Source of the DNA: Hydrolagus affinis
Taxonomy: Eukaryota
NCBI GenBank assembly: GCA_012026655.1
Contig: JAAILG010000680.1
Coordinates: 1 to 64,000, forward strand
Reading direction: 5' to 3'
DNA: 64,000 nt
In this document: in pieces, positions 39,649-64,000 of the stretch
How positions within the stretch are numbered: the stretch's first letter is position 1
Layout of the letters: each line of letters begins with the position of its first letter
Program-made: the position numbers and the translations under genes
Notes under the pieces: model-generated
What the model was told of the DNA's origin: nothing
Seen by the model: the letters and a program-made list of their open reading frames with translations, nothing else
The model's database searches: none

Positions 39649-40805
39649 TCACACAGAAACCCTCAGTCCACGCCTTGATTTCCGTAGTGACCTCAGTTCT
39701 TTCACACCTTCTGTACTGAACCGATGCTCGCTCAGCCTGAAACCATTTTAACAAAAGTTAAAACCGAAAATAAACCAACATCATAAACATTTATACGTTT
39801 TGTTGTTTCCAGAATCACCTAATACACAGAAGTTCCTGACTGAAACTCAATTATTTATATAGTGATACAGGCCAAGTTTGTATACTTCACAAAACAATCC
39901 TTCACCCCTCTAGTCTCCTCCCCTCTACTATACCCTTCTATTCCCTGCTCACTTGTCTCTGTATTAACTTTTCTCTTAAATACATTCCCGCTCTTTGTTT
40001 TAACCACAGCTCCGGGCAGTGAATTCCACAGTGTAAAAAAGTTCCTCCTAAACTCCCAAGTAAATCTGTTTCTATCTATCTAATATTTATACCCTCTCAT
40101 TATAGACTCACCAACAAATGGAAATAGCCTATTAACATCTTCCACATTACCCAATCCTTTCATAATCTTTAAACCACTCGATCGGTTCCGCTGTCAATCG
40201 TATCAATTTGAAAGAGAAAATCTCTGATCTGTTAGTCTTCCCTGATTGCTGGATCCACTCATATGTGGGAACATCCTGACAAACAAACCCACTTTTTGTG
40301 TGTTTAGTTGCATAGACTTACAATGGCAAACACTCACCAGATCCGCTCGAGGTAAGTGGAGCTCAGCAAGAGAGCACGGAGAGGGGGCACGGACATGTCT
40401 GTGAAAGAGTTTGTTCCCAGTACTAGGTGCTTCAGGGAGCGGTTTGAGATGAGAGAGGATGTGAGATCCTCGATACAAACATCAGTCAGACCGACATTAT
40501 TGAGTCTGTAGATGAAAATTATTATTAGCCATTTTAATAATAATTTTAAATTTGATACACCGCCTTTGATTTCAGGAGAATGTCCTAGAGCACTTTACAG
40601 GTAATACTGTAAAGTGGAGTGACTGTATAACTTGTAAATGACCGGCTTCCAATGTGCGCATAGCATAGCCCCACAATCAGCCATGGAGTGAATGACTGAT
40701 TTTATTTGTGGGATTGTTGGCCAGGACACTAGGAGAAAGAAACTCGCTTCACTTTACCAAGAGCACAATGGGGTCTTTAACATCCTCCTGAACAGGCAGA
40801 CAGGT

Positions 40806-40836
<31 letters not shown>

Positions 40837-43800
40837 TACCTCTGACAATGAAACACACCAGCAGCACTCGCTGGAGGGTAAACTTAGATTCTGTGAGTTA
40901 CACGTCCTAATGTGCGGCTTGAACCCACAACCTTCTGTCTCGAAGGCGAGAGAGTAATTGATCGAGCCGGGCTGACTGAATAAGAGTCAGAATAATCACA
41001 TTAATCTACAATCAGTTGCTAACACAATTTTACAGAATGTTGCTTACTCCAAATTCTGGATTTTACAGTTGGGGTTCCTCAGAGCCACAGACAGTTGTTT
41101 CATGCCCGAGTCTCCCAAGTTATTATTGTTCAGGTTCAGCTTAGTTAGTGAAAGGTTAGTACTGAGAGCGGAGACGAGGTCCTCAATACAGTCAGCTGTC
41201 AGACTGTTACCTTCCAACCTGGATATCAGAGAAATAACAGTGCATAAATTAAGCATTAATCCTCGCATTTGATACACCATTTTGGGGAGGAGGACTTCAC
41301 AAGTACACAGAATATGCTGTAAAGTGTAGTGACTGTGTGTTTGTAGACAACCATGGCCAATTTGCACAAAGCAATGTCCCACAAACAGCCATAAAGTGAA
41401 TTACTTATTTATCTGGGATATTGTCGGGACACCAGCGGAAGCTCTCTCAGGTACTGACAGCATCAACATCCAAGGATGCACACCCCATCTCACTAAGCCA
41501 GTTTGGAACCTTGGTGTCTTGTTTGACCCTCAACTATCCTTCCTACCCCACACCCGTACCATATCCCATCCTCGTCCAACTCCACTGGCTTCCCATCACA
41601 CAGAAGATACAGTTCAAGATCTTGGTGCTCACCTTTAAAGTGCTTCATGGTCTTTCTCCCCCACCTCTGTGACCTCCTAACCCTCTACCAACCTGCTGAC
41701 TCCCTCCACTCAACAGGCTCCGGTCTGCTTCATGACCCCTGCCTTGAATGCCACCATAGGCCAGCGAGTCTTCAGCCACTCTGCCCCCACCCTCTGGTAC
41801 ATCCTGCAGTCCCTCCAGCTTGCTCCCTCCCTTATCTCCTTCAAGACCCATCTCAAAACCATCCTCTTCAACTGTGCCTTCAGTCACCCTCTTTCCACCC
41901 CTACTCTCCATCCTCCCCGATCCCGCCCCCTAGCTCAAATCTGAAACACTGACTGTTCAGTGGGACGTCTTGGGACGTCCTCCCGACGTGAAAGGAGCTA
42001 TACAATTTTTGTAATGTAATCTTTGTTGTTGTTGTTGTTATTAGCTCAGTTTGTAGCACTTTTGCTTCTGGGTCAGAAGGCTATGGATTCAAGGCCCAAC
42101 TTGGGAGTTGGAACCCATACAGTCCAAGCTGGCAATCCAGTGCAGTGTTGGGGGATTCGAGAGGTCGAGGGATGTGCTGGAGACTAGAACCAGATGAGCA
42201 AAAGGCATGGGGAGTTGAGTGGGGTGTGAACAGGTGCGAAGTGGAGTGACAAAGTGTGAATTGATTTGTAGGTGGGTGTGAAGAGCTTGAAATCGATGAT
42301 CAATGCTCTCAACTATTTCAGAGCACTTTGGGTGACGGTATTTCACCTCACAGTTTTGCTTACCCCAGATTCTGTATTTTACACTCAGAGTTCCTCAGAG
42401 CCACAGCTAGTCCCTTCACTCCCAAGTCTCTCAGGTTATTATAATCCAAGAACAGTTCAATCAGTGACAGGTTTACACTGAGAGCGGAGACAAGGTCCTC
42501 GGTACATGCAGCTGTCAGTCCATTACTTGATAAACTAGACATTAGAGACATAAAGAAATACAACATGTTTACATTTCCCCAATGCCTTTCATGGGGACGT
42601 CTCGAGGACCCTTTCAATCCTGGCCATCAGCTTGAGCTAATGTAATTTTGTTGTTGTTGGTCTGCAGCCCGTGGAAGAAGGAGTTGGAAAATTTGGCAAG
42701 CAGGGAGTTAGTATAGAAAAGCGTGAAGCATAGTCAACATGTGAAGGCTGTATATAAATTTAAGTTGTTCTTGAGAGTTTAACAGATGAGTGAAATGTTT
42801 GCTCCAGATTTTATTATAACCAGTGATTGCCACAACCTCACACAGTGAGTGACTTACCACAGTTTCTGTATGTGACACTCTGGGTTCTTTAGAGCTGCGG
42901 ACAGTCGTTTTACTCCTGAATCTCCCAGGTTATTGCCCCATAAACTGAACACAGACAGAATCAGAATCAGAATAATCTTTGCATTTGAAATAACGCCTCA
43001 TCATGTCATTGAGATGTCTCAAAACCCTTCACAGAAATTAATGTAAAATGTAGTGACTGTTTTATAGGGGGACGCAGCAGCAAGTTGGCACGCAGCTTCC
43101 TGCAAACAGCCATAAAGTGAGTGATTGATTTGGGGGATTGTCAGCCAGGATATCAGAAGAGAGAAATTCCCTTCTCTTTTCTAATAATGCGGCGAGATCT
43201 TTAACATCGACCTGAACAGGCACAGATATGAGTTTGGTTTAATGTCTTATCCAAAAGATGTGACTCCGACATTGCAGTTCTCCCTCCAGCACTGTGCTGG
43301 AGCTTCAGCCTGGACTATATGAGTTCCAACTGGATTTGAACACACAACCTTCTGACTCAAAGGTGAAATGCTACCAACTGAGCCACACTGGTACCCAGAA
43401 CATGAGGGAATTATTGAAGGCATAGAAACTGTGTACCAGTACTCTATAGTGGGATAAGCATGGAATGAGTAATATTGGAACATAGAAAGATATAATATTA
43501 TTATTATACTGTAGAAGGATATACTGTACTTCAGGTTTGTGCACTTGTGAATCGTGGGGAGCAATCGCTGGATCCCTTCAGCTTGAACCAAGCAGTTACT
43601 GAAATACATCTCTCCCACAGTGTCACAGGGCTCCATGATTCTTGCCAGCACAAAGCAGTCAACCACACTCAGATGCAGGGCTTCCTCTGGGTATGTGTCC
43701 CCAAAGTTCAGGGCTTCTAACGACCTCATTGTTTGCCGCATCAGCTCCACATCCTGACTCTCAGACAGAAAGTGGAACAAGTCCATCAAATCCCTCTTGC

Positions 43801-46800
43801 TGCTCACATCATCCAGGTTGTGGGGCCGCTTCTCCAACTCTTTGCTCAGCCAGGCAGAGACGTTGGAGGCCATCTCTGGACAAAGTGGACCTACCAAGTC
43901 CTCAATGCGTCCCGACGTGTGGGCGCTGAGGCCGATAAGGAAATGGATAAAGGGGTGGAATGGACAGTGCGAACTCAGTTGATCCAGGAGTGCCTCTACC
44001 GCTGGTGGTTCTGGGGTCAGGTAATGACCAAGTGCGGCCAAGTACTCCTGGAAAGCGAGGCGATGGAGCATGTACACACCGCTCTCTGCCCCCTCATCCA
44101 TCTCAAGGATGTTCATCCCAAGTCCTGAGATGAGGTCCCGGTGGTCCTCAGTGAAGTCAGTGCATGGCTTCCATCCTCCTTCATTCACCGCCCCCGCAGC
44201 TCGGAGCAAAGCCTCCCGCGCGGTCTCCTTCCCTCTGAGGCCTTGGTCATCTTTTAAGACATTGCAAATGAAATTTGAAAAGACCTGCGTAGCTGTTTGC
44301 AGGAGCTGGGGATTGCCCTTCAGTTGGGTGAAGACAGGAGGCAGTGATTTGCAGATAATCCGGTCTCCAGAAGGGTCAAAGCCCATTGTGTAGAGGATAT
44401 CAGTCTCCTTCGCCCGTTTCAATGCCACTAAGTTCTCATCACTGAAATGGCAACTCAGGTGATCCTCTCTACCTTTGTCGAAGAAGATGTCTGCCCACAG
44501 ATCAAGCTGTGCCTGACGCAGAGTCTCCAGGGCTTCTGGTCGGCTTGTGATCAAGACGGAACAGCCTCTCAGCATCGTTCCCCACACTAGACAGTGTACA
44601 ATGTCAGCTACCTCACAGTCCCCCTCAGGACCAGGGAAGTGAGTCTCAGTGCCTGCCTTTCTTTCCTTGTTTCCAAAATCAACCTTCACCTTGAACTGAT
44701 CCAATCCATCGAAGATGAAGAGAAGGTTCTCTGGGGAATCCCACACGTCCTCAAGTTCCTTTCCGAAGTGAGGATAGTAATTGCGGACCATGGTGCTCAA
44801 GTTCGTTTTCCCCTCAATGATATTCAAGTCTTGGAACATGAACCAGAAGACAAAGTGAAACTGGAGATATTTACTCCCTGAGACCCAGTCGTGGACTATT
44901 TTCCTCACCATGGTACTCTTCCCGATTCCTGCCGCCCCACTGACCACTGAAGTCCCCCCTTTGTCTCTGAACAAGCCACCAATTTGCAGTCTTTCGAGCT
45001 CCTCATTGTGTTTCTTCAGGCATTCTTCAACGTCTCTGTAATAATAATTTGAATCAGATCAAAATTAATCCTTGGATCCCAGGATGTCACTGGCTTCCGT
45101 TTTCACACAAAGCACACAATTGCTTCACTTTACAGTAAAATCCTTTGAAGCTCTTTTAGATGGCTCAACAATGTGATAAGGCATTGTATCAAATGCAATA
45201 ATAATGATTCATTTTATTATTATTAAGAATATTATTATTTGATATAACATTTAACATATCATCAAAATGTCTCAAGGGAAGTAAAGTGACTGATTTGTGA
45301 ATACAGCAGCAATTTGTGCACAGCAACTTCCACAGCAACAAACAGCAATGAGGTGAATGGTTGATTTACTCTCAGGAATTGTCAGCCAAGACACTGGGAC
45401 AGAGAAGTTCTTCTCTTTTCCAATAGCATTGCGGGATCTTTAATGTCTACCATACAATACGTCATGCATTTGATACAGCACTTTATCACATCGTTGAGAT
45501 GTCTCAAAGCACTTCACAGAAACATACTGTACTGTAAAGGGTGTGCTTTGTTGGCAAAGTGACTGTAATAATAATGATTTGATATACCTTTTCACGTCTT
45601 CTAGATGTCTCAAAGCGCTTCAGAATATATCTGTATTTAAACACTAATCATAAGGTCAGTGGAAAGCACTGAACACAGAAGGATCTCTAGTTTATGCTTT
45701 TCTGCAGCAAGTCAATTTTTCGTCTCTTGCACAAATACATTTCCTCTTCCTCTTCCTCCCCCTCTCCCCCACCCCCACCAAAAGGGAAAGAAGATGGCAA
45801 CTTGTGTGGACAATGTGACAGTGGAAGGCACACAAAGGTTTCAACTTACATCTGCCACTCCATCTTTGTACACACAGACATGAGGGGATTCAGAACCATC
45901 ACGTTGTCTGATCCCATTAACCAGGCAGATCAGCTGCTGAGTAAGACTTACAGAAACATCTGATCAGTAGTTACCCGCCTTAAAAGCGTGAGACCTGTTT
46001 TTGAATCCAGGCAGATTAGGGCGAAACCTTGGGCAAGTTTCCTTACTTCACACACATGCCTAATAATAATCCCTCCAAACAAAAAATAATAATAAAATTG
46101 GTCATTTCAATCCATGACTGTTTGTGGGACACTGTTGTGCACAATTGGCTGCTGCATTTCGCCCACAAATGTACAGGCATTACAGCATTATAAATTTACA
46201 GTATGTTCTGTGAAGTGCTTTGAGACGTCTAGAAGACTTGAAAAGCGTTATATCAAATGCAAGGATTATTATTATTATTATAACAGTACATTTATAGAAA
46301 ATATTGTAAAGCACCACCTTTGGTTATTGAATGGAATCCCATTCAGTTTATTTTATTTGTATCCATATGTACCACATTTTACACTAGTCATGAGCAACAG
46401 TTCGTTCGGGAGCTTATAGAAATTGATTTCTTATACCTTTATCATGCAGTTCAGAGAGCACGACTACACAAAACCTTAACAAGCAAACAATTCAGTTCAA
46501 TGTTTCATTGGAAGACCACACCTCTGACAATGTGATACTCCCCCAAATACTTCACTTGAACCCATAAACTTCCAAATTAGAGTCAGTGTGAGTGACTGAG
46601 CCAGACTGAGATGATCTTTTCTTTGCTTCACGACTACCCATTCATAACTACCCGAATCTGAGCTCATTCGAAGGTCCACAGTGAGTGTGCTGAGGGCAGA
46701 CTGTTCACCACTCACCTCTCACATTCCGCTCGCAGGCAAACTTTGTGCTGATGATGAATATCTGCATTAAAAAAATTAAAGAAAATATTTACCTAAGACA

Positions 46801-47774
46801 GTAATGCAAGGAATAATTTATATTGAACATAATTCTTGCATATGTGAAAGGCGCTACACAATGTAATTTTGTTGTTGCTGTTTACAATAAATCCAGTCAG
46901 ATGTCCTCATTTTGTGTCAGCAGGATATCTGACTGGATTTTCTGTAAAATAAGAACATAAGAAATGCTAGACCAAAAAAGACCAAGGTCCATTGTAGAGT
47001 GTAAAGGTATAGTGACTGGATGTTTTGTGGGTGAATGTCACAGGCAATTTGTACACAGCCCGCGAACTGCCGTGAAGCGTCGATCTGGAAACCGGGAAAG
47101 AGAAACTCCCTTCTCTTTTGCAATAGTGTTGCGTGATCTTTAATGCCCATCTGAACAGGAATAGACGAGTTCTGGGTTTTACATCTCGTCGGAAAGATGG
47201 CACCTCTGACAATGGGATGCTCCCCTCAACACTACGGTCAAGTTGAAGGAACAACAACAAATTACATTGATAGAAATGACACTGCATTGTCAGAAGTGAA
47301 CCAAGTAAACCAAGACACGATTTCATCCACTTCATGGCTGTTCGGGGATGTTACTGAGCACGAGGTTTGTCTTTGACTATAGTGTGGTACTGGAGTGAGC
47401 ACCACACTGTCAGAGTGTCTGTAGACTGTGAGACTTTTTGTTCGGACGTGGGTTCTTGAAACCACAACCTTTTGACTGAGAGACGAGAGTGCGAGTGACT
47501 AAGTTAGGCGGACACTTACAGAGATGGCAATTGAAATTGTAAACTCCCTTCTCTTTTCCAATATTGTTGTGGGAATTCTAACGTCCACCTGGACAGGCAA
47601 CAACCACAACAACAAAATTACACTTGTATAGCGCATTTCACGTCTGGAGGATGACCCAAGGCGCTGAACGGGACCTCAGTTTAACATCTCATCTGAAGAA
47701 ATTCTCAACATACCTGTGCCAGCTCTTTCTTCATGCCCTCTTGATGGACATTTAAGACTTGGATCCTCAGCCAT
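39649..47774 (-). CDS. NACHT-LRR (NLR family, NLRP3/NLRC3-like) protein, about 765 aa, no N-terminal death-fold domain detected
   Basis: Minus-strand exons 47714-47774 (MAEDPSLK...), 46716-46761, 43530-45035 (NACHT: Walker A GAAGIGKST, Walker B LLFIFDGLDQ, sensor-1 ITSRP, FQEYLAA), ribonuclease-inhibitor-like LRR exons 42858-42944, 42364-42534, 41048-41218, 40338-40505 (NNLGDSGVKRLSAAL type), and terminal exon 39649-39736 (...RRGLRVSV*). Total 2298 nt in frame. The two small 5' exons are less certain than the rest. Confidence 0.85.
40534..40976 (-). mobile_element. Deu-domain SINE (SacSINE1-like)
   Basis: Same Deu core and tRNA head in reverse orientation. Confidence 0.7.
41465..42040 (+). 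mobile_element. L2 LINE 3' fragment
   Basis: Decayed RT C-terminus [30 protein letters not shown] and SFKTHLKT, plus a (GTT)n tail. Similar L2 pieces at about 365-640 (-), 17925-18250, 53090-53440 and 57870-58060 (-). Confidence 0.75.
42972..43390 (-). mobile_element. Deu-domain SINE (SacSINE1-like)
   Basis: Accounts for the non-NLR C-terminal tail of ORF 43247..44974 (…[16 protein letters not shown]…). Confidence 0.75.
45960..46282 (+). mobile_element. tRNA-derived SINE (SINE2-1_CM-like)
   Basis: Degenerate head, conserved ttgggcaagtttccttact body, (ATT)n tail. Confidence 0.8.
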
Positions 47775-49790
47775 CGTGGTTACAAATGGTTATGTGGTTC
47801 TATCATGCCCTGCAATAATGTCACAATTTAGCTGGTCAATTTTCACTTAACATATCAGCACATTTGATAATTTTGTATTATAAACTTATGAGTTTCTTGA
47901 GTTTATTTGGAGCAAGCCTACATGTGAGGAAAACATATTTTAAAGGTAAGTTTGGGGCAGGTGGAAAGCAGGGAAATGGCAGTGAGAGAGTTAACAATCT
48001 GAGCACTTCACTTGTGGCAGAAACATGTGATTCTGACTATTTTTGAAGGAAAAAAAATTAAATAACCAAAAGGTGTTATATAATTGCAAATGATTGATTA
48101 CCTGTAAAGAATGTACTAAAAACAGACATAAAGAGGGCAGAGTTCACTGCAACACACTGAGGCAGGATCCTGGAACGGTGAAATCAAGTAGGCTGAGATC
48201 AGTTGTACTGTGATCCTCACATGATCAGATCCTCCATGTTTGTCCCTGTTTTTTTGGGTGAGCCCAACTGACCTACTGAGGATTATGTACAGTAATTAGA
48301 CAGACAGAACAGTCAATCCCTGTATAAGTAGGCATGTAATTGACTGACAAAGAGAGCGAGTGAACAAGCAAGCTCTGGCATCAGACCAACACGACAGCTT
48401 GTAGTGTACTCACTCTGGATGTCCCGGATCTTGCTGGCTGGCATTCCCGGGAGAATGTGATTTGTGGAGTCGCTTGCTCTGCTCAGTACTGACTCCTCCT
48501 CTCACTTTCCTTACTGTGTCTCTGACATGACCCTGAGAGACTGATGTTTCACAATCACGGAAGCACAGCGTACAACACATTCATTGTTTCACAACAGCCA
48601 GGATATGCAGACTGCAAACCAGACTAAGCCCAGCTCTAGGTGTGTTCAGTGGATTGTGGGCAGTGAAGTAAGTTACAGTATCAGACCATTAAAGAGATTT
48701 CAAACTGAACTCACCATTGGCTCTGTGTGGTAAGGTTAATAGGTACTTTTCCACTTGATGGTGAGAGTCAAAAGAGGCACAATAAAACAGTTGCAGTTAT
48801 ATTACCTTTATACAGTAACAGATCTAAAGGAGTTTAGGAAGCATTTCTTCACACAGGTTGTGAAATTGCAGAACTCACTGTCGGAAGCTGTGGTAGAAAC
48901 AAAAACATAAATGTGAGAGAAACATTCATACAGAGACGAGGAAGAGGGGATTAAAGGGGTATATGAGAGGGGTGTTGGGAAGGGGAGTAGGAAGATGTAG
49001 GAGTGGAGAATAGAAGGGTGTAGGAGAGGGGGAAAGAGGAGTGTAGGGAGAGGGCATGCAGGAAAGGGCAGTAGAGTGGGGGGGTTAGGGTAGGGGAATA
49101 GAGGGATGGGGCTCGTGTGGAGTATAAACACGGCACTGTCCTCGCTGGATGGATATGTACTTCTTACCTGATATTGGAAAGTATTGGGCTCAGGTTGGCA
49201 AGAGCCAAAGCTTGGTTGCGGACTCCAGAGTGCACGTTGAGGTACTCCTGGAGTCCAACCGGTTAAAACCATATAGCTTGCCAGCATATTGCGGTTGAAC
49301 AAGCTTTACCACCCTATCCATTGGGACTATGGATTGCAGGATTAACAGCAGCTGAGTGGAATAACTCCCTGTCCCCAGTGATGGTCTGCCCTTACAGGTC
49401 GTGCCAATAAGCCAAGGTGGCTGAGCTGTCATCAGCAGTGCCCTGGAATACTGCAGACCCGCCTGGTTGAGGAACCAGACTAGAGACTAGAGACCTCTAC
49501 AGCTGACAAATCATTGCTAGGAATGGCACCTTGGAAAACCCCCTAAGTGGGGTCTTCCAAGCAGACCCCACTTAGGCACAAACTATGGTTGGGCCAAACA
49601 GCCTGTGGCTGTGCTGTAGTTCTCTGGCTCCACTGATGAAGAGAGACGGTATCAGTGAAGGCTCACAGCCTGAACAGGTACATGGATTATCCAGCAACAA
49701 AGCAGGTAAAGCAAAAAAAATCCTTGTTTTTAATCAATCACACAAGGCAAAGAGTGACATATACACACACCAGCAAGTCACAGACAACAT

Positions 49791-49796
49791 TTTATT
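49791..49796 (-). terminator. candidate polyadenylation signal of the sortilin-like gene
   Basis: TTTATT on + (AATAAA on -) about 900 nt beyond the stop, followed on the minus strand by GU-rich sequence. Confidence 0.55.
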
Positions 49797-50706
49797 TAGA
49801 ATGAAATTACAGGAATTGTCTGTCTCAGACCATTCCACAAGCAGAGACACTCATATATTTACAGTGTCTTTCACATAGGAAGGGTGTCTCGAAGGCTTCA
49901 TTCACACTGCTGACTGGGTGCCTGAGCAGATGGAAGTGGTGGCTGAAAGCATTGTCCAAAAGATCGGACTTGAGTTGAAGAGACAGGCAGGCACGGAGGA
50001 AAACAGGCAGGCGCAGAGAAACACGCAGGAACGGAGAAAAACAGGGAGACACGGAGAAACAGGCAGACACAGAGAAACAAACAGACATGGAGAGACTCAT
50101 GGACACGCAGAGACAAGCAGACCCAGAGGATCAAGCAGGCCGAAGGTTAAGCAGACAGATGGAGGGAAAGAGGGACAGACATTGTTCTTGCTCACATCAG
50201 AAACACTCATTCCTAATAAACAAATAATAGGTTCGAGATTGGGGTTTCTAGTTTTGAAATCACACAGGTCTGAAGTGGAACTTAAGGCAGGCAACGAGTC
50301 AGACACAGTAACAGAGAAGTTCACTCCATGTTTCAGTGACTGTACTCGTTCTCCACACCACCACCTGCTGCTTAAAGATACGAGGAGAGGCAGCTGCCAT
50401 AGAAACAAAAGACGTTTGGACTTTTTAATTATCGGGACAGTAAAACATTTAGATTTGCACAGATGAATGTCATAAAAAAAGAAACTGTGGAGTATGTGAG
50501 GAAGAAGTCTCTGGTGTCTGTGCATGAGGAGTATTTGCACAAAGACTATTTTGTACGAATCCAGGTTTGCACGAGGGCTATTTTGCCTGAGGACTGTTTT
50601 ACACAAGGACTCTTGCATAAGGATTGTTTTGCATGAGGTTGCACTTCATAAACAAACCAGTTTGCAGTTTGGCAACTAATTGCTTGCTGATGTGAAATTT
50701 AATGGC

Positions 50707-53700
50707 TCAGTCGAGTAGATCCTAGTGGGGGGGGGGAAAAAAAACATTGAATATTTAACTTCTATGAAAAGGGTCTCTTGTGACCAAACATAGAAATAGA
50801 TGTACAACAGAGGCTGTGCTGACTCTCGGTGTATGCTGCCCTGCTCAATTCCTATCCAGCAGTGAGTTATCATGAATACTGTCAGCAACAATTTGCATTC
50901 ATATAGTGGCCCTCACACAGGGTAGAGTCCCAATGCTTAGAGGGGTGAAAGGATCAAGACTTAAATAACAATCTTATAATTGACACAGTGATTTTCACAT
51001 CAGGAGGAGATCCGAAAGAACTCCACAGGATATACTGTAAAGTGAAATGACTGCATTTCATGGGATTGTGGCAGTCCAATTTGTGCATTCACGGAATGAG
51101 TGACCATTTTATAATAATAATAATCCACGCAATTGATATTGCACTTTATCACGTCTTCGAAACATCTCCAAGCACAGAATACACTATAAAGTGAATTGAC
51201 TGTATATTTTGTCGGCAGAGGTAGCACAGCAGTTTTGGGAGTTCCCAGAGACTTCTGTTTTTGTTTCAGATTTCCAGCATTTTGCTTTTTCTCCACAAAC
51301 AATTGTGGTTTGAGGGACCTAATTAATATTATTATTTATCTGGGGGATTGTTGGCCAGGACACCAGGAGTGAGAAACTTTAGTATCTTTTTTGAATAGAA
51401 TCATGGAATCGTTAACATCCACCTGAACAAGTATACATGGGACCTTGGTTTAAAGTCTCATATGAAGGACTGTCACTAACATTACAATGATCTCCCAGCA
51501 CTGCAATAGAGCATCAGCTGAGAGTATCTGGACTTCCAAGTCCCACCATTGGGCTTTGAATCCACAACTTTCTGACTCAGAGGGCTACTAATTTAACCGG
51601 GCTGACACACACTAAGGCGGGCTGACACGCACTGAGCCAGGCGGACATACAGGCTAAATCAAACCAGGTAACTTACAACATCGGAATCGTCGTGGTAAAC
51701 TCTTTCTGTGTTTGACCTTCTGCTGTCCAGATCATCAGCGATGCACACCTCATCATTGCTACTCTGCAGCACCGAGTAACGGTAAACAAGACTCCTAGAA
51801 AATACATCACAGTGAGGGGAGAGACTCTGTGGAGGGCCTAACTTCCTTTCACATCAATAGGTCACCACTGACACCTCTTTCCATACATTGTGCTGTACAC
51901 CAAAGGTGGTGTCTATGTGAGCGACAGACCCTGAAGTTGATGATTGTCAAGTCTATCAAGAGCGTGAGGGGAGCAAGTGGCACCTGTGCAGTGAATGTGC
52001 ATCGCATACGCGTTACAACTGATCCTGCGTTCTCCCAGAACCAGGTTGCATAAAGCTCTGTATTTTAATTTCTGGGGCAAAGTACTCTCTCATCTATTCT
52101 TGCCCCACACATCCTAATAATATTTCTTTGCATTTTATATAGTGCCTTTTCACATAGCAAGACGTCTCAAAGAGTTTAAAAGATTTAATGTAATGCATGG
52201 TGACTATATTTTGTGGATCAAATGTGGCAGCAGCCAGCTTGCACACAGCAATGCCCCACAGACAGCCATGGAGTGAGTGACCAATTTTATTTGGGGGATT
52301 ATCGGCAAGGAATCTGGGAGAAACTCTTGTCTCTTTTTGAATAGTGCCATGGGACCTTTAAAGTCTACCTGAACAGGCAGATTGAACCACGGATTATCCT
52401 ATCAGCACTGTACTGGAGTGTCAGATAGGGACTATGTGATTCCATGTACTGACATGTGAGTTTGAACCCACAACCTTCTAATTCAGAAGCAAGAATGCTA
52501 CCACTGCGCCAGGCTGATCTTTGTGCACAAAAGAAGGCTGTAAACAGTGTGAAAGGTCACAAGCCTGATCTGGCTCAGTGGATTCTCTGTGAAGTGGCCA
52601 GGTTAGGGCCAAGGCACCAAATGAGATTGACAATGCTGGTCCACTCACCTCCCTCCGCACACATATTTCTTGCAAATTATGACAGCGCCTCCAATCATCA
52701 ATATTGACACGACCAACACGCAGAGAACAACGATGACCACAGAAGTCTTGGGTATCTGGAAATCCATCATCAAAAAAAATCTGACTGAGTTAACCAGCAA
52801 CAATCTACAGTATTACACTAGTGACAACACTTGGCAGTTTTCATCTTTAACCCCACAGAGCGTGTGAATATCAGCAGAAATACTTCCTGCTCTTTAAACA
52901 ATAACAACCCGCATTTATGAAGTGCCCTTCGCACAGGTGCCTTTCATGGCAGGAGGATATTTTAAAGTACTTCACAGAATAATCTGTGAAGTTAATTGAT
53001 TGTATGTTTTGTGGATGTGAATAGTGAAGTAGGTGATCAATTTGTAAGTGATCTGGAAGACTGTCCATCAGTAGACAGAAAGTCCCCTCTCTTTTCGGAA
53101 ACTACGGGAACTCTCTCCTCATCTGCCTCCCCAGCTCCTCCCTTCACAGGCTGCAGATCATTCAGAATTCTGCAGCTCGTGTACTCTCCCCATACCAGGC
53201 TTCGCGACCACATCACTCTCACCTCTCCCGTCTCCACTGGCTCCCATCCCCCAGAGGATCGAATTCAAGATCCTCGTCCTCACTTTCAAGGCCTATCTCT
53301 CTGACCTGCTGTCTTCCTATCAGCCTGCCCGTACCCTCCGTTCAGCAGACTCAGGCCTGCTCTGCGTCCACCGCCCTGACCACCCAACCACCGGTGGCCG
53401 AGCATTCAGCCTCTCTGCTCCCACACTGTGGATCTCCATCCCGCTTTTCAGAGGCTAGAGGCATAGAATTGGAAAGCTGGACCATAGACGGAGGGTGGGG
53501 GTCAGGGCAGGGGATGTAGAGCCAGCCCAGGTTAATTAATTGGAAGGGGAGGAGTGGGGTAAGAGATGTTTGGGAAAGTCCAGATTTAACAACAGCAAAA
53601 ACATCTTGCATTTATACAGTGGTCTTTATGCAGAGTAGCACCACTGACTGCTTAACAGTGCGGAACCTGATGCTGAGCCGGGGGAGGGATGAGTTGATCA

Positions 53701-56700
53701 TAGGTACAGACAAAAAGGAAGGTCTTCCGGTGTGATCTTAAGATGGGCACAGAGAAGGCAATCGGAAGGATTGGGGCACAGAGTTTCAGTGTAATGCCAG
53801 ACATCAATTATGGAAAGGAGGGGACATGGAGATTAGATGACTTACTGTCTCTTTCACAGCCAAAAACTCTTCACAGTTTATATTGGTGACACTTTCGGAG
53901 CGAGTCGGCATGAAACCACCTTCGCACCTGTCCCCAGGAATCTTCCGATATCTGAGTAACGAGCAGGCCAAATAAAAGTTATTGTTGTCCATCAATTTTC
54001 ACAATAGATAAGAATAATCCTTACATTTAATATAGTGCTTGTCTCGAATTCTAGACGTCACTAAGCGCTTCACAGACTATAATGGAAAGTGAATTAACTG
54101 CATATTTGTGAGCGAAACGCAGCAGCCAATTGTGTCCAACAGAGTGCTCTAACCACTGAGCTAAAGGACTGCACTACGTGCAATAGTAGGTCAAAGTGAA
54201 CCCACATTGTAACAAAGGACATCACAACAGGGTTCCCCTGTATTTCACTTCATTCTTAGGAAGCTCAGTCGCTAGTTCTCTCGTCTCCGGGTCAGAAGGT
54301 TGTGGATTCAAGTCCTACATCAGGATGTTGGGGTTAAAGATTGGTTTTCCAGCCCAGTGCTGGGGGTGGGGACTGCAATGTCAGAGATACAAGCCTTCAG
54401 AGAGATGTTAAATATAATTCCAAGATCACCAGGTTGAATTTGATGAAGAAGATTCCAGAAAAGCTACCCCCCCATCACAGCATCAAGATGTTTTTTAAAT
54501 GAGTCCCAGTGTCATGGCTTCAACCACCCTTTCTGGCAACCTGTTCCAGGTGCTAATGATCTGGGTAAAAAAAGCTTCCTGCTTGCTGACTGTCCTGAAA
54601 TTTCCCTTTACAATTCTAAAATGTTGTACTGTCTCAGTGCATCAGAAAGAATTGATCTGGGATTCCTCTTTCAATCCGATTTAAAATGTTACACCTCTCT
54701 ATAAGGGCTTGTCTGAATCATATTCTCTCAAGACTGAAGAGCCCTAGCTTGTTTAATCGTTGTTCATAGCGCATTCCTCTAAGGAATGACCTATGATGGG
54801 GATAATCCTTGTTGCTCTCCTCTGCACTGCGTCCAAGTCCTGGGCAGCCCACTAATGTCTTGGTGTCCAGAGCTGTAAGTAGTATTCAAGGTGAGGTATT
54901 CCCAGAGCACGGCAGGTGTTTCCGTACATTGGTGATATTGGTTTAGCAAGAAGGTATAAAAACTATGTCTCAAATAACTCACCCTTGTGTATTGAGTAAC
55001 TCCTCTTTCCCTTTCAAGCAGAACTCGAGTACCTTGTCTTTCAGGTCAGGTTGCTCTATACATTCTTCACTGTTTCCCACACGATAATATCCAAAATCAC
55101 TAGGGTCAAAGCAAAACAAGACAGGCTGTTGAAAGGCAGATGCTATATTTCTAACCAGGTTTTATCTTGAATCAGGCACTCAGTCTCTCGCCTCTGAGTC
55201 AGAAAGCTGTATTGGCACTTAGAATTCATATATTCTATGCTTCAGTGCAGTGCTGGGAGAGCACTGCATTGTTGGAGCTGCCGTCCTTCAGCTCAGATGT
55301 TAAACTGAAGTCCCAAATACTCCTGTTCAGGTGGATATTAGAGATCCTGTGGCACTATTGGAAAAGAGAATGGAGTTTCTCTCTCCCGGTGTGCTGGCCA
55401 ACAACCCCCCTAGTTACTGTATAAAAGTCTCTTACTCTATGGCAGTTTGTGGGACATTGCTATTCGCAAATTGATGTGTTCACCTACTAAATACAAAGTC
55501 ACTACATTTTACCATGAATCCCCAAAGCGCTTTGAGACATTTTGATGACCTGATAAGGTGCTGTATCATCTAAACAAATTATTATGATTATATAATTATA
55601 AATATACACCCCTTCCAAGCTTCTCTACAAGGTTTGCTTGACTACCAACATGCCATGCCTCAGCAACAGTGAGATCTCACAAAATGTAAATACATCTACA
55701 GTCAAAACCTGTCTAAATCCCCATTTCTTTGAGGGGATAGTAACTTTGGCTTGTGACATACCACATATAATCGCTCTTGGTGCACTGGCAGAAAGCTTGC
55801 TCTTTAGTGAGCTGGTAGTCTCGTCCGTTCCGGCACACCGAGGACTTGGCCAGTCGCTGGAATCTTTCTTTACAGCCCAAGACACAACCGTCAGTTATAC
55901 TGCCAAAATCGGTGGAATGTGCCAGCCACGTCACATAATCTCGTTCGTCACCTGGAAGAGAGGCATTTACCATGTGAGAATGATCACTGCATTGCGGTCA
56001 GCAATGTGTGCGAGTAAACAATGTGTGACAGAGTCTCTCTTCCCATTAGAGAAGATGTAGGATTCCATTTATTTCTTGGCAAGATTTATAATACTAATAA
56101 TCTTACATTTGATAAGTGTCTTTCACTTCAATAATAATAATAACCCTTGCGTTTGATATAATGCTTTTCATGTCTTCTAGACATGTTGAATTTGTGGATG
56201 AAACACAGCAGCCAATTGCACACAGCAGTATCCCACAAACAGTCGTGAATTGAAATGACCAAATTATTATTGCTTTTTTGAAGGATTATTATCAGGCGTG
56301 TGGAGTAAGGAAACTTGTCCAAGGTTTCATCCAGCCTTGTGTCAAGAGGACGCTTCACGAGATTACTGTAAATTATAGTGATTGCATTTGTGGGCAAACA
56401 CAGCACGCAATTTGCACAGCAACGTCCCACAAACAGCCATAAAGTGATTGATCGATTTTATCTGGGGGATTGTCAGCCAGATACTGGGAGAGAGAAACTT
56501 TCTTCTCTTTTCCAATAGTTCTGCAGGATCTTGAATGTTTTGGGGATGGGAAGGGGCACCATTGGGGATATGGCCTTAGATTGATGCACAATGAGTGAGC
56601 AGCCCATAGGGAGGAAAGTAGAACAGTGAGCTGTTAATAGCAATTCAGAATATCTGGTAGTGAATCAGGTTAAACACATCCAAGAATGAGGACACCGAGG

Positions 56701-59700
56701 AGAGGATTACAATAGTAATATTCCTTGCATTTATAATAGTATACTATAATAGCAATGATAATTATTATTATAGTAGATTATAATAGTAATATTCCAGTGC
56801 CTTGTGACGTCCTCCCAGTAGTTATTTTGTTGTTGCATTTGATAATGCACCTTATCACATCTTCGAAATGCCTCAAAGTACTTCACAGAACATACCATAA
56901 AGCAAAGTTACTGTATATTTTTGTCGGGTGTAAGGGAAATCTTGCTAAATACCAGGTTGTATCAAAGAAGCACTGGACATTAACTAAAATGAGTAATTCC
57001 AATCTGGAGAATTAGCAATCACACATGCATACCACACATGCACACAGTTAAACAGGCGCACTCCCAACACAGACACACAAGCAACAACAACTTGCATTTA
57101 TATAATGCCTCGCACATGGGGTAGCATTACAGAGTGCGTGTGTATGTAATGTTGACCCGCTCCCACTCACGCACACAAACACACCAGTACATTACTTGCT
57201 TGCTTTGTCACAATGCCAGATCTTGCCTGTACCAACTCCACAAGTGTTTATAACACAATAGCACACAGAGTCTTTCACAGCACATCACACCACTCACAGT
57301 CTCGGGTCAGAAGTTCGTTGAAATCAATGGTGTAGGAAAGCCACGTAGTTTTGTAAAAGCTCTCCTGTTTATAGCCCCACAGACTCACATTCATGGACTT
57401 GGTCCCTGGCTCGGACACCAGTCCCACAAACATGAAGGTCTCATTAGTGAAGTTATAGCTGTGCCAGCACTGACCTTCGTCCGTTGAGTATCTTTGTTGG
57501 AAAAGAGGAAAAGAGTGAAGGACAACCTTATTGTCAGTGGCTCCAATAATGCTTCTTACATGTTAACACTGAACGAGCACGTGCCAGGAATGCTATCTGA
57601 AAGTACTACCTGGGAATACTTGAATCTCTAATGAAGTGACCAAGGATTTTGCCAAGACATATCCATCTTCTCGTTCATTAAAACTGTGAGTGTATTCTCC
57701 AAATACTGAAGAGCTGACTTGCATCACTTCCATTTCTTGGAACAACAAGCATCTCCAAACCAATCCCTTGAGCCAGACTGATATGACACTTGCCAACATC
57801 GGTCTATTACCCAGGGGGATTATGTAATCAGGGGAAATTTTCACGCAGATGTGGAACTCTCAAAACAAAGAGAGCAGATAAAAGAGTGGAGTATGAGCAA
57901 GTCAGAGACATAGGGGGTTGCTAGGTCATGAATTGATTTATTCGTCAGTATGAGGATCTTGAAATTGATCCGTTCTGTGTCAGGGAGCCAGTAAAGCTTG
58001 GTAAGGACTGGGGTGATGGGTGTACAGTTTGGTGAGGGCAAGGACACAGGTGGAGTTTTGATCTTTGTGAACAGTGGAGCTGGGGGGACCAGTGAGTGTT
58101 TGGTTAAGACCTTGGTTACATCACATACTTTATAACCTGTACTGCCCTGTCAGGGTGAGACTCCAAAGCCACGATCAGCCCTCCAGAATCCAACATCGTA
58201 TAAAAGTGAGGCCCATTCAGAGCTTTCCACCATGTATAGCCTCCATCATCAGACACATAGACATCCGGAGGCAAGGTGGAGATGACATCACCAACACTGC
58301 CTGTCAAAACAACAACAAATGGCATTTATTTCACATCAGGAGGATCTGATAAGGTGCTGGACAGTCAAGAATTTTGAACCCGATTTGAGGCTTGTAGTCA
58401 AGAGTGGTGGAGGGCAAGGTGGATGGGAAGATGCCCTAAGGCATGGTCAAATAGGAAGGTCTCAAGTTTCTAACCCTAACCCTTGAAATAGGGAAGGGAG
58501 GGGCACGGTGGAGGGGCTCCAGTATGGATATTGAGAGGGTTGGGGCAGAAAGACTGAAGGTCTGACTGCTGATGGTTGAACAGGCAGGACAAGGGTCATG
58601 GAGAGGGCCAATGCCCACTGAACAGAGGGAGTGTTTTTAGAAGGTCACAAGAGGAGAAAGGCTCAGCTTCTGGCATCTTACTTTATAGACGTCCAATTCC
58701 ACGCCCCTTGTGACATGCACACACTCACTGAAAAAATCCAGACTCACCATGAGCAATCACCACACCCACTGCGTTTGGTGCAGTGAGTGGGAGAACTGGC
58801 ACGTCCACTTTCTGAGATATGCTGTAGGCGGCGTGAATGTGGAGATTACACTGCAAACAAAAACAAAGAATCAGTAGCAGGGATGTAAATTTAAACCCTT
58901 ATCGGGGACTCTGAGCTCACAGTCCAGGCTGATGCTCCAGTGCAGTGCTGGAGGGAATCTCCCCATTGTCAGAGACACAGTCTTGCAGATGAAACATTAA
59001 ACAGTGTGCCATCTGTACTTGTTCAAGAGGACATCAAAGAACCTCTGGCATTAGTGCGAAATAGAAGGGAGTTTCTTTTTTCTCTGTGTCCTGTGTCCAG
59101 ACAATCCTCCAGATAAAACTGGTCACTCACTTTTTATGGCTGTTTGTGGGAAGGTAGTTTGTGCAAATTGGCTGGTATGTTCACCTTCAAAACTCGGTAA
59201 CTGTACTTTATAGTCTATCCTCTGAAGTATTTTGAGTCGTTGTCTGGTCATTCTGAGGATCTATGCGGGAATTACATTGCCCAAGAGATGCTAACATTTA
59301 TTAACCATTAGATAACTGGGGATCCAATGCTATAAAACCCTCTGTGTTGGATTGAGCAAGTAGAGGACTCCGAGACAAGGGGATAACAGGACACAGGGTC
59401 AGACACAGGATCAGGATGGACATATTTCTTTACACAAATAATAATTACAAGAGGGTTGCCTGGACGGGGAGTTGGGCAAGGACACAACTCCTTTTGGAAA
59501 CACTGCAGCTTACACTGCACACATTCTATCTTGCTCATACACTCTCACTCATGTTCATTCATCCTCTCTCATTCACACTGACCTGCTCAAAAATTTTGGT
59601 TGTCTTATCACACTGACTGTTGGCTGGTCTCTGCAATGCTGTCCACTCCCCTCCACTGTCGAAGGTGATCACTGATCGGATACTGTTGTCTATCAGCAAA

Positions 59701-62700
59701 GGAGCAATAACAAGCATTCGGGTTACAAACATAGAAATAAATGAGATTCACCCACGGTACACATTCCCCTCAGTTATCGGGTGTCAAAGTGTCAGTGCCC
59801 TTGACCATCCAGTCGGTTGATTGTAAAGTACAGTGACTCTGTAGACAAACGCGGTAGCCAATTTGCGCACAACGACGTCCCACAAACAGCCATGAAATTG
59901 GGACCAATTTTATCTGGGAAATTGTTGGTTAGGACACTGGGAAACTCCCTTTGCACTACACTTTAGTAATAATCTTTGCATTTGATATAATAATAATAAT
60001 AATCCTTAAATTTATGTAGCGCTTTCCATATCTTAAAGACGTCTCAAAGCACTTCACAGAAACAACAACGTCCCAAGGTTGGGACCAGAGCAGGGGAGGA
60101 GGGAGAAGACAAGAGGAAAGAAAGGGAGGAAAGAGGTAGGGACCAGAGCAAGGTGGGGAGGGGTCGTGGTTGGGGGAAAGAAAGTAGGAAAATTGACTGT
60201 ATATTTGTGGGAGAAACGCGGCAGCCAAATTGTGCACCACAGTGTCTCACAAACAGTCGTGGAAGTGGGGCCAGGGGAGAAAGTGGGAAAAGAGGATAAG
60301 GAGGGAGAGGGAGGTAAAGGTGGGGTAAAATCAGGGAGGAAAAGGGGAGAGAAAGAGAGTTAAGGGGGGAGAGGGAGAGAAAGGTGCCTTGATATATACT
60401 AATATATATATAGATATATATAAATATATATATGTAGATATATATATATATATATATTGCGTTATCAAGTCTTAGAGACATCTCAAAGTGCTCCACAGAA
60501 TCTACTGTAATGTAATTGACTATGTTTTGCGGGCGAAAGCTGAAATACAAATTGATTCAAATTCAGCACCTTGAAACTGAAACACAAATTGATATTTATA
60601 GTGCCTTTCATGTCTGGAGGAGATCCTAACGTGCTTAGCAATCCTATCTGTGCTCCTGAGCTGGCGGTGGGAGCCAAGCAGGAGTTCAGTGGGAGGGAGA
60701 GGTGAGAGGGGCAAAGGGATGGTCAAAGATATAGGTCCTGAGATAAACATTGAACAAGGTGAGGGAGGGAGTCGGAGTAATTTCAAGAGGGAGTTGTAGA
60801 GAGTAGGGACAGAATGATTGAAACCTCAGCCCCTAATGGTTGCAGATCATACTCGTGCCTGCTGAGCGAGAGGAGGGGTGGGTAGCTAGTAGCATTGCTG
60901 TGAAGGCCGAGGGAAAGAGTGCGTGTGATTACTTTTGTCCAGGATGTTGGTGATGTAGACTCCCCGCAGGGAGGTCACGTTGGTGAAATCAGTGGCTCCG
61001 CTGGAATCTATGAACAAATGGCGCTCCAGAGATTTAGAATAGAGGATCCCACGATCGTCAGATGTGTAGATGGTGCCAAAGCCCGTGTCTGAAAGGGAAC
61101 AAGCACAAAACATGAGATGATCATGCAAGGCACATGCTGGGTCACAGGAGGCAGGAGGAGGGGTGTCAGGCGAGGTAGGAGGGGGGGGTTCAGGTGAGGT
61201 AGGAGGAGGCGGGATCAGGTGAGGTAGGAGGGGGCGTGGGCGGTCCAAGCAGGATGGGGCGCGGTCGGGCGAGGCAGGAGGTGGTGGGGGGGGAAATCAG
61301 GTGAGGTGGGGTGGTCATGCGAGGCAGGAGGGGGTAACAGTACTCACTCCCGGGCTCATCCACGTGCATGAAAATCATCTCATGGTCAGCCCCGAGTATG
61401 GAGTAGAACTGGAAAGAACAGACACTGCAGTTATGCGAGATTGTTCGTATCTTTACCTTCACCTCTTCCACATGTCAAACACGCATATATGGAGTACTGT
61501 AACTCAGTGGAGCATTCAACAACAACAAATCTTACAAGCGTGAGACCTGGGTTCAAGTCCAGGCAAGGTAAAACCATGGCCAAGTTTCCGTACTCCACAC
61601 GCCTAATTATATATAATTCCTTCAACATAACAATAATAAATTGGTCATTTCAATCCACGACTATTTGTGGGACACTGCTGTGTACAATTGGCCATGTTTT
61701 GCCCATAAATATACAGTCAATTCACTTTACGGTATATTCTGTGAAGCACTTTGAGATGTCTAAAAGTGGAAAGCTCTGTATAAATGCAAGGATTATTATT
61801 ATTATATGCAACACAAAAATTGCACGCCAAGCACACAGATATGGCTGAACAATTCCCCCCACCACAAACATGCATTGAACAATGCACACACTAAAAATAC
61901 ACTACTCCTTACATCACCAACATGCACACATATATTGCATTTTGTGAGCACAAGTGACAAATGACTTACATCCCACAAGCAGCCATGAAGGGAGTGATCA
62001 CAGGACACAGAGACACAGACCAGGACACAGGCCAGGAAACAGAGAGATAGAGAGAGACAGAGATAAACTCCCTTCTCTTTTCAGTACTGCAGGATCTTTA
62101 TCATCCAACTGGTCCTTGCTTTAACATCTCACTTGAAGTACAGCATCTCTGACAATGCAGCGCTTCCCAAACACTATGCGCTGGAGCATCAGCCTAGACT
62201 GCGAGCTCAAAGCCCCAAACATAAGGCTTGATCAAATCCACAATCTTCTGACTCAGAGACATTTCTGGCTTTTTGTACATTGAGAAATTTGAGTTTCACA
62301 AATAGAAACAGGTAGTATTTCAAAGCATCCTAATAGGATTATTGTTAGATGATAATAAATAATAATCCTTGCATTTGATATAGTGCTTTTCACATCTTAT
62401 CAATGTCCCAAAGCGCTTCACAGAATATACTGTAAAGTGAATTGATTGTATATTTGTGGGCGAATCGCGGCAGCCAATTGCGCACAGCAGTGTCCCACAA
62501 ACAGTCGTGGATTGAAATGACCAATTTTATTATTGTGATTTTTTTGGATGGATTATTATTAGGCATGTGGAGTAAGGAAACTTGCCCAAGGTTTCGCCCT
62601 GACCTGCCTGGATTCGAACACAGGTCTCCATAGCTTGCAAGACAAGTGCTCTAACCAATAAGGAGTTCCAGATTATAGACTCAGAGAGCAGAACACCAAA

Positions 62701-63932
62701 GCAATCTACAGCACAGAAGAAGGCCATTCAGCCTATCGTGTCTATGCTGCTCCCTCAAGTGTCCCATTGACCTGCCCTTCTCCCCACACTCTTGTAGCTC
62801 ACTCTCTGGTTACTGGAAATAATTGCAATGTGTGACTGGGAAATTTCCTGTTGGGAATGGCTCTGATCTCCAATCCAGTGAGATTCTCCTGAATTAGGAT
62901 TGGATCCTACACCCAGGGTGTTAAGGCCAAGAAATCCCTTCGGCCCTGCAGGCTGGACACCAGCTCTGAGATTGGGAGCACAAAGAGCAAGAGCGCTGGA
63001 ATTAGGGTCAGACCCCATATATTGTACCTGTTTGTGACCAACTGGAGGCAGTTGAGCTTCGTTCCATGTGTTGCCCTGGTCAATAGACACGAGGATAGAC
63101 CTTGGGAGACTCTGAGGAGAACAAGCACATTATGTTATGCTTCACAGTTTGCTCTTGACAACTGGGTCACATATCTTCTCAACCTTCTCTTTTCCAATTA
63201 ACCATAAAGTCCACCTTAACGGACACAGATGGGGAGCGCAGTTTAATGTCTCATCCAAAGGACGGTGTCTTCCTAAGCACTGCACTGGAGCGTGAGTCAG
63301 CTGAGACTATGTGATTCCAAGTCCTGACGCGGAGCTTGAACCCACAATCCTTTGACCAGAAGCGAGAGTGCTACCATAGCGCCATGCAGACACTAAACAG
63401 AGCATTACCCTAGCATTGGTTACGCTTACAGGACTTTGTGTACCAGTAGAAAAATAATCACTTCAACAATAACTGGTATTTAAATAGGCCCTTCACACAG
63501 GGTAGCATCTCAGAGCACTTAGATAAGAAGCTGTCCAGCACTTAGTTATTTTAGCAAGAGCCGTTATCCTACAACAACAACAACAACAAAATTACACTTG
63601 TATAGCACCTTTTTGGTCAGGACTGCCACTGGTAATTCAGCAAACAGAGTTATCCCTCCACTAGTTATTTTAGCAAGACTAGTAATCCTATCAGTAGTTA
63701 TTTTAGCAGATTATTATCATTACTATTATCTAAATATCCAAACACTAGAAATCGAATTAGCTATCACTAGTTACCAGTACGAAGAGTTATCTTACCTGGT
63801 TATGAATAACAGAACTGAAGAGAAATCGCCCGGCGAAGCCGAAGGAATAGATGTTGCTGTGGAGTTTGGTGTTGGACTTGCCCAGGTCAGTCGTCCTGTG
63901 CAGGTATAGGCTTCCTCTGGCACTCACATCAT
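50707..63932 (-). CDS. sortilin-like Vps10p-domain receptor, last 14 coding exons (5' end lies beyond the window)
   Basis: Minus-strand exons 63796-63932, 63028-63111, 61348-61408, 60933-61088, 59583-59689, 58748-58850, 58129-58300, 57298-57491, 55762-55951, 54983-55099, 53846-53951, 52649-52755 (TM), 51677-51794, 50707-50721 are all in phase. Peptides [71 protein letters not shown] and YHDDSDVDLLD* are clearly sortilin family. Symbol left blank because ortholog versus paralog status is unresolved. Confidence 0.93.
55175..55590 (+). mobile_element. Deu-domain SINE (SacSINE1-like)
   Basis: ctctcgcctctgagtcagaa...cagtgcagtgctgggagagcactgcattgttggagctgccgtc...ctgttcaggtgga. Confidence 0.75.
60392..60457. 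repeat. (TA)n microsatellite
   Basis: Imperfect TA run. Confidence 0.9.
61145..61335. repeat. G-rich minisatellite (caggtgaggtaggagg...)
   Basis: About 6-7 imperfect units filling a short intron of the sortilin-like gene. Confidence 0.75.
61494..61805 (+). mobile_element. tRNA-derived SINE (SINE2-1_CM-like)
   Basis: Head gtaactcagtgg...ggttcaagtcc, body and (ATT)n tail. Confidence 0.8.
62358..62660 (-). mobile_element. tRNA-derived SINE (SINE2-1_CM-like), reverse orientation
   Basis: Reverse complement of the same SINE consensus. Confidence 0.85.
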
Positions 63933-64000
63933 CTAAACAACATGGTACAACCTATCACTGGGGTCAGAGGGGTGAGACACTGAGGAGGCTAATGCCAGGG

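Follow-up and report, generated by a model that had tools for sequence, protein, structure and literature searches.

The 64,000-nucleotide window analysed here is a stretch of Hydrolagus affinis DNA (contig JAAILG010000680.1, positions 1 to 64,000). On its minus strand, at 39649..47809, lies a gene for a nucleotide-binding, leucine-rich repeat (LRR) receptor (NLR) with no N-terminal signalling head. The gene is expressed, conserved in a second chimaera, Callorhinchus milii, and single-copy among the candidates scored. It descends from an expanded chondrichthyan NLRP3-like family and nests among its members in trees. Structural modelling indicates that this family has a hidden CARD-fold head, which the window gene has lost. 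Motifs of the NACHT switch are also altered. Our preferred, though tentative, reading is that the protein is a non-signalling decoy or brake, which would dampen hundreds of CARD-bearing paralogs.

The gene was modelled with eight exons encoding 765 amino acids and a single terminal stop. Each of the seven introns has GT-AG ends and keeps the phase. An earlier note on this DNA had proposed a phase-consistent gene free of frameshifts and premature stops; that model holds, and its two 5′ junctions were found in RNA. The likely orthologue, judged by sequence, is C. milii XP_007892800.1 (A0A4W3IM09), 80.8% identical over 762 amino acids. The features are as follows.

48400..48735, minus strand: likely transcription start region, with a candidate non-coding first exon whose GT donor lies near 48414 (drop in RNA depth; donor in sequence).
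47714..47809, minus strand: exon 1, with 5′ untranslated region, in-frame upstream stop and start codon at 47774; the coding part, 47774-47714, specifies 20 amino acids plus 1 nt (sequence, 7 junction reads, C. milii N-terminus).
46762..47713, minus strand: intron 1, 952 nt; expected place of two CARD-like head exons, going by paralog exon order (RNA junction; remnant searches).
46716..46761, minus strand: 46-nt exon, homologue of the first 15 codons of the paralogs' single FISNA-NACHT exon (profile; both junctions in RNA).
45036..46715, minus strand: intron 2, 1680 nt, without counterpart in the paralogs; lies where these encode at least 43 amino acids of FISNA including the RYT motif (9 junction reads).
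43530..45035, minus strand: NACHT exon, encoding NBD, HD1, WHD, HD2 and transition LRR (Pfam NACHT, E 4.5e-26; HD2, 5.7e-9).
42858..42944, minus strand: LRR exon 1, 87 nt (phase; C. milii model).
42364..42534, minus strand: LRR exon 2, 171 nt (phase; C. milii model).
41048..41218, minus strand: LRR exon 3, 171 nt (phase; C. milii model).
40338..40505, minus strand: LRR exon 4, 168 nt (phase; C. milii model).
39649..39736, minus strand: last coding exon, with stop codon (phase; C. milii model).

Transcription was assessed using three RNA runs from one sample of one study. The organism is closely related, with reads mostly 99% alike, and 27–30% of each run was read. Junction 46761^47714 was spanned by seven reads (3+0+4 over the three runs) and junction 45035^46716 by nine (3+2+4). 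All have their first mate on the plus strand, as minus-strand RNA predicts. In answer to the isoform check proposed in the earlier note, the first exon splices straight to the 46-nt exon and then to the NACHT exon. RNA depth is low over the gene, at about 1–5. It is 0.03–0.3 at 48400-48735 and zero at 48736-49400 in all three runs. No junction from the candidate non-coding first exon was seen in the RNA reads. Because an in-frame TAA lies 15-18 nt 5′ of the ATG, within the same exon, the open reading frame (ORF) is closed to further 5′ extension. No LRR junction is among the 15 RNA joints listed; hence, the LRR exon joins are supported by phase and by agreement with the C. milii model. Placement of RNA at 85% likeness was swamped by repeats. 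At that likeness, thousands of stranded reads at 42237-42803 match part of LRR exon 2 and then run into common foreign sequence; they probably derive from a highly expressed paralog. The RNA organism also differs at 39736, the first base of the last exon (W737C, 7/7 reads), where the residue is common to C. milii. A promoter motif scan returned one IRF-like 8-mer, without meaning by itself. Neither a broken frame nor a lack of transcription marks the gene as a pseudogene.

We then considered the missing head. Pfam death-fold profiles matched none of the 77 minus-strand ORFs of at least 28 amino acids at 45000-51900. CARD, PYRIN and Death profile searches of the genome likewise gave zero matches inside the window. 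However, the Pfam scan is uninformative on headlessness, because relatives also score zero: none of 29 has a PYD, CARD or Death match, though many carry a head. The profile search that the earlier note had advised is therefore blind to the Pfam-silent CARD of this family. Genome-wide, there were 33 CARD, 1 PYRIN and 30 Death matches against 349 NACHT candidates. A second count of the family in this genome gave 518 candidates. The sole PYRIN match, G000:C218783:406-570, lies on a contig other than that of the window (1 of 3 candidates scored).

Many relatives share a helical N-terminal domain of about 110 amino acids that is silent in Pfam. A hidden Markov model (HMM) of this head was built from 49 database sequences. 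It matches 55 of 161 proteins scanned, many of these being fragments. Among relatives of a headed query, whose ranking favours headed proteins, it matches 115 of 120. In the same genome, the head is present in 20/20 paralogs (loci L037-L056), with both exons in 18. These 20 are all 19 plus-strand NACHT matches with more than 6 kb upstream and one minus-strand match. A C. milii paralog carries the head too (98 bits). Conversely, six frames of the window gave no match, the best score being 3.7 bits, and DNA profiles of the two head exons detected no remnant near the gene. Since all 20 paralogs carry the head and the window gene does not, we conclude that the loss is real and derived. Exon 1 gave a best match of E 0.12 to paralog first exons. 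The profile score of the 46-nt exon is reached by 3e-5 of window positions.

The head domain was predicted with a pLDDT of 95.7. Its model aligns with the NLRC4 CARD over 89 residues (VIA; Z 12.8, root-mean-square deviation 3.0), while unrelated folds reach at most 3.7. Foldseek E-values were weak (best 0.13), yet the top 15 ranks listed were all CARDs. The Atlas comparison was concordant with the CARD reading. In some family members, P0070, P0096 and L041, the CARD-like head is repeated in tandem, with two or three copies. In L039 (G000:C7732:19900-29800), a likely pseudogene, the NACHT exon is split over frames and the head exon is still there.

Other terminal domains are also absent. In the structural model of the orthologue, residues 1-49 have pLDDT below 50 and one helix. 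The window protein has no pyrin domain, as in NLRPs, no BIR domains, as in NAIPs, and no two-exon CARD-fold head, as in its own family. The earlier note's statement that the two 5′ introns hide no death-fold exon is borne out by Pfam, head HMM, DNA profiles, RNA junctions and RNA depth. Its description of those introns as mostly SINE needs correction; repeated DNA is present, and DNA repeated inside the window covers 47% of intron 1 and 45% of intron 2 (lower bounds). The absence of a C-terminal B30.2/SPRY domain, known from teleost NLR-B30.2 proteins, was rightly noted: the stop lies right after the last LRR, and the orthologue is also without one. This is usual for the NLRP3-like family, where 0/30 scanned have a B30.2.

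The NACHT domain itself is recognisable (PF05729, E 4.5e-26, with a fold match to NLRP3 and NOD2). The C-terminal LRRs comprise seven canonical LxxLxLxxN repeats and a cap, with LRR_6 matched in the orthologue. Kept motifs are Walker A GAAGIGKS (K75/S76), Walker B D145/D148, sensor-1 R201 and HD1 P257. Altered are R to Q104, E to Q149, C to D260, W to R261 and H to R361, along with a 2-amino-acid deletion in EIxGF and an 8–9-amino-acid deletion in the WHD. Neither the PhhCW motif nor the histidine of WHD FxHxxxQE is present. Both chimaeras have PSGDR; LHRLAFQEY in the window is LHRLAFREY in C. milii. NOD2_WH found no match in the orthologue. By contrast, same-genome paralogs keep R, E, G, C and H wherever the site is covered (29, 29, 28, 24 and 17 of 29 cover it, respectively). 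All five diagnostic motifs are altered in only two of 237 proteins, the window protein and its C. milii orthologue, and identically in both; 182 have none altered. The altered motifs serve nucleotide binding and autoinhibition. The orthologue model is well folded in the NBD, HD2 and LRRs, and of low confidence in residues 1-49 and in parts of HD1 and WHD.

A further change precedes Walker A. In 22 paralog loci, the stretch between the HK motif and Walker A is a single open frame of 93–123 amino acids, compared with 50 in the window protein. The missing portion of FISNA is about 45–50 amino acids (at least 43) and includes RYT; the 1680-nt intron 2 sits there. The family's uninterrupted FISNA-NACHT exon with RYT is therefore not found in the window gene. 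The deleted segment aligns to the RYT of NLRP3, whose Y168/T169 sit in the nucleotide pocket in simulations, according to passages of a preprint that also ties FISNA to NLRP3 conformational change (10.1101/2023.05.03.539258). The 13 nt behind the intron 2 donor match paralog codons in register (p ~0.001, the 13-nt part being chosen post hoc). With the donor bases included, the donor side gives a remnant p of ~0.03. No remnant of the deleted FISNA DNA was detected by nhmmer or tblastn, and none on the acceptor side. Because profile searches detect no remnant, intronisation of the FISNA segment is suggestive only. Intron 2 is an apparent gain within a coding exon, at the cost of a functional motif; intron gain is called rare in vertebrates (PMC12357937). 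Given the FISNA deletion and the altered switch motifs, the earlier note's term "complete NACHT" was an overstatement.

These features are conserved. The C. milii protein has the same headless N-terminus, deletions and motif changes, and is 3 amino acids shorter at the exon 2/3 junction. Its automatic annotation, "NACHT, LRR and PYD domains-containing protein 3"-like, is misleading as to the PYD. Identity between the two climbs towards the C-terminus (NBD 78%, HD2 83%, LRR 85%). Among 228 columns conserved in 149 family members, 78 differ in both chimaeras, 62 of them with the same new residue or gap. Five ordinary members show 11–23 departures in the same columns. The stem branch of the chimaera pair is 0.82 and the tips are 0.16 and 0.08. 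This long stem with short tips indicates a burst of change, then conservation. When neutral substitution was simulated until protein identity was the same, 1/2000 runs kept both copies free of stops (indels not counted), and neutral decay is unlikely. Expression and the open frame likewise counter the decaying pseudogene that the earlier note had raised as its alternative.

The expanded family shares the NACHT-HD2-LRR plan with the window protein at about 40–53% identity. Its members have canonical motifs, an intact FISNA and a CARD-fold head spread over two exons; the window gene is without all three. The next paralog is 52% identical in the NBD and ~40% in HD1-WHD, in keeping with the earlier description of a singleton. 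LRRs are ~65% like those of paralogs, compared with ~40% for HD1-WHD. No elasmobranch protein exceeding ~45% identity across the NACHT exon was found. Headless models occur elsewhere, in Scyliorhinus (XP_072356504) and Heterodontus (XP_067916139). Trees differ on possible orthology with the headless shark proteins P0058, P0068 and P0281. These join the window gene in simpler-model trees, stand apart in a 34-row site-heterogeneous tree and are weakly joined (77) in a 17-row tree. A single origin for the six headless rows is not rejected (approximately unbiased test, p-AU 0.079). The shark and skate proteins P0281, P0058, P0068, P0040, P0282, P0044 and P0078 have no head HMM match, and their gene models may be incomplete. 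Some headless shark and skate members have eroded Walker B and WHD motifs. Two headless Heterodontus models have glycine at position 2, which may be a lipidation site. Cartilaginous fishes are without orthologues of human NLRP inflammasome sensors, according to passages of PMC8455134. The "NLRP-related" expansion that this paper describes in the whale shark is probably this family; Rhincodon proteins are among our family matches.

The gene is flanked, as the earlier note had it, by two genes of recognisable type. Upstream is a sortilin (Vps10) gene at 49780-64000 on the minus strand, with AATAAA at 49796. Downstream is a gene with CTLH/WD40 domains, which we take to be WDR91. Since human sortilin and WDR91 are on different chromosomes, the upstream gene may be a sortilin paralog.

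What might such a protein do? The functional consequences that we infer from gene structure, splicing, head loss, motif changes and conservation in Callorhinchus are these. Lacking a death fold, the protein would have no means of recruiting a caspase or an adaptor. The changes to the RYT strand, the EIxGF glycine, PxxCW and the WHD histidine would keep it from performing the normal ADP/ATP switch and from forming an active ring. Its HD2-LRR half, which is better kept, would remain able to bind and thereby sequester the activating ligand or partner, or else an activated paralog; this half could also cap an activated paralog. A complex prediction for C. milii orthologue residues 20-375 and C. 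milii paralog residues 168-590, made without alignments, scored 0.00 and is evidence neither way.

Several observations weigh against a decoy or brake. Q is also found at this Walker B site in 13 of 144 relatives from the database. Going by the retained residues, ATP binding may persist, because Walker A, two Walker B aspartates, the sensor-1 arginine and the HD1 proline are kept. By a register shift, H360, adjoining R361, might replace the WHD histidine. The gene is not clustered with paralogs within the window. Signs of constraint relative to the RNA organism are weak; of 15 coding differences, 7 are synonymous and 8 nonsynonymous (p 0.035 by site counts, 0.14 for transitions alone). Finally, passages of PMC7583971 report that NAIP, NLRP6 and NLRP8 are without the WHD histidine and still bind or need ATP, and that loss of this histidine activates NLRC4 rather than silencing it. 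Hence, the histidine loss fits a sensor or nucleator equally.

An unlikely alternative, though the best placed, is that the protein acts like a NAIP: it would bind ligand and open, and would nucleate a ring made of a CARD-bearing paralog, from which the signal would come. NAIPs have no CARD of their own. In addition, hundreds of CARD-like paralogs (the 349 and 518 candidates) are possible helpers, and the P-loop is kept. NAIPs also lack the WHD histidine, whose loss in NLRC4 favours the open state (PMC7583971). However, there is one copy of the gene, and the two chimaeras have largely the same predicted LRR ligand face, which would be unlike fast-turnover sensors. FISNA, tied to conformational change in NLRP3, is partly deleted. 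The protein also differs from NAIP in domain content, since NAIP has BIR domains, and NAIP belongs to another NLR clade.

Less probable again is a scaffold or adaptor outside inflammasome signalling, with HD2-LRR holding another protein, as for the mammalian maternal NLRP5 and NLRP14. HD2-LRR is indeed the best-conserved and best-modelled part, and NLRP14 chains are the best solved-sequence matches of the orthologue. Mouse NLRP14 and NLRP5 are not known to have a PYD. PMC13237083 describes NLRP14 as binding UHRF1 and KDM2A, and its NBD as flexible in the mouse. Against this, the NLRP14 match is LRR-driven and barely above that of NLRP3, and the gene nests in an immune-type expanded family. Relaxed selection with slow decay is very improbable: many in-frame deletions and motif losses, tip branches ~1.5x those of a canonical pair (0.146+0.114 vs 0.088+0.087), low RNA depth and three C. 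milii isoforms with later RefSeq accessions that begin only at HD1 would suit it, but neither species has a broken frame or splice site, neutral runs almost never left both copies stop-free and the derived residues are themselves conserved.

The oddity of this gene is real and more specific than first noted, yet it has precedents. The remodelled switch, the Pfam-silent family CARD and the recurrence of headless members in sharks had all been missed. New here are the NACHT that is not intact and the family's Pfam-silent CARD head; NLR expansion and the C. milii RefSeq entry were known. No study of XP_007892800.1 or of the family CARD was found in the open-access literature. According to a 2026 preprint, none of 98 C. 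milii NLRs contains a CARD and the species has no ASC (10.64898/2026.07.03.736391); its figure supplement may qualify this. With a CARD-fold head in a C. milii paralog, that question is open again, and direct coupling of NLRs to caspase-1 can be tested. The head may offer a way to caspase-1 that bypasses ASC. The window gene, conserved, headless and with an eroded switch, is a candidate check on a very large receptor family. The fullest version of this picture is doubtful: a chimaera NLR system of several hundred members, with Pfam-invisible CARDs that might recruit caspase-1 independently of ASC, and a headless pseudo-ATPase brake dedicated to this system, its CARD exons deleted and its nucleotide-contacting FISNA strand turned into a new intron, as an animal counterpart of Arabidopsis NRG1C.

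Among known systems, the closest solved folds of the orthologue model are NLRP3, NLRP14 and NOD2 (Foldseek E 1e-34 to 1e-33), and the motifs of these mammalian proteins align. NLRP3 differs in having a PYD and full FISNA, whereas the window protein has no death fold and a remodelled pocket. With NAIP it shares the missing WHD histidine. For a decoy or brake, NRG1C is the nearest parallel: it too is an N-terminally truncated paralog of signalling NLRs, and keeps WHD-LRR. NRG1C inhibits by competition, according to passages of two sources (10.1101/2021.01.27.428547; PMC12177489). However, it belongs to the plant NB-ARC lineage, has lost most of its NB domain and adjoins its targets. Its inhibitory function is demonstrated in the plant and serves as an analogy for the window protein. 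If the window protein is a decoy, animals and plants would have reached the same truncated-inhibitor solution.

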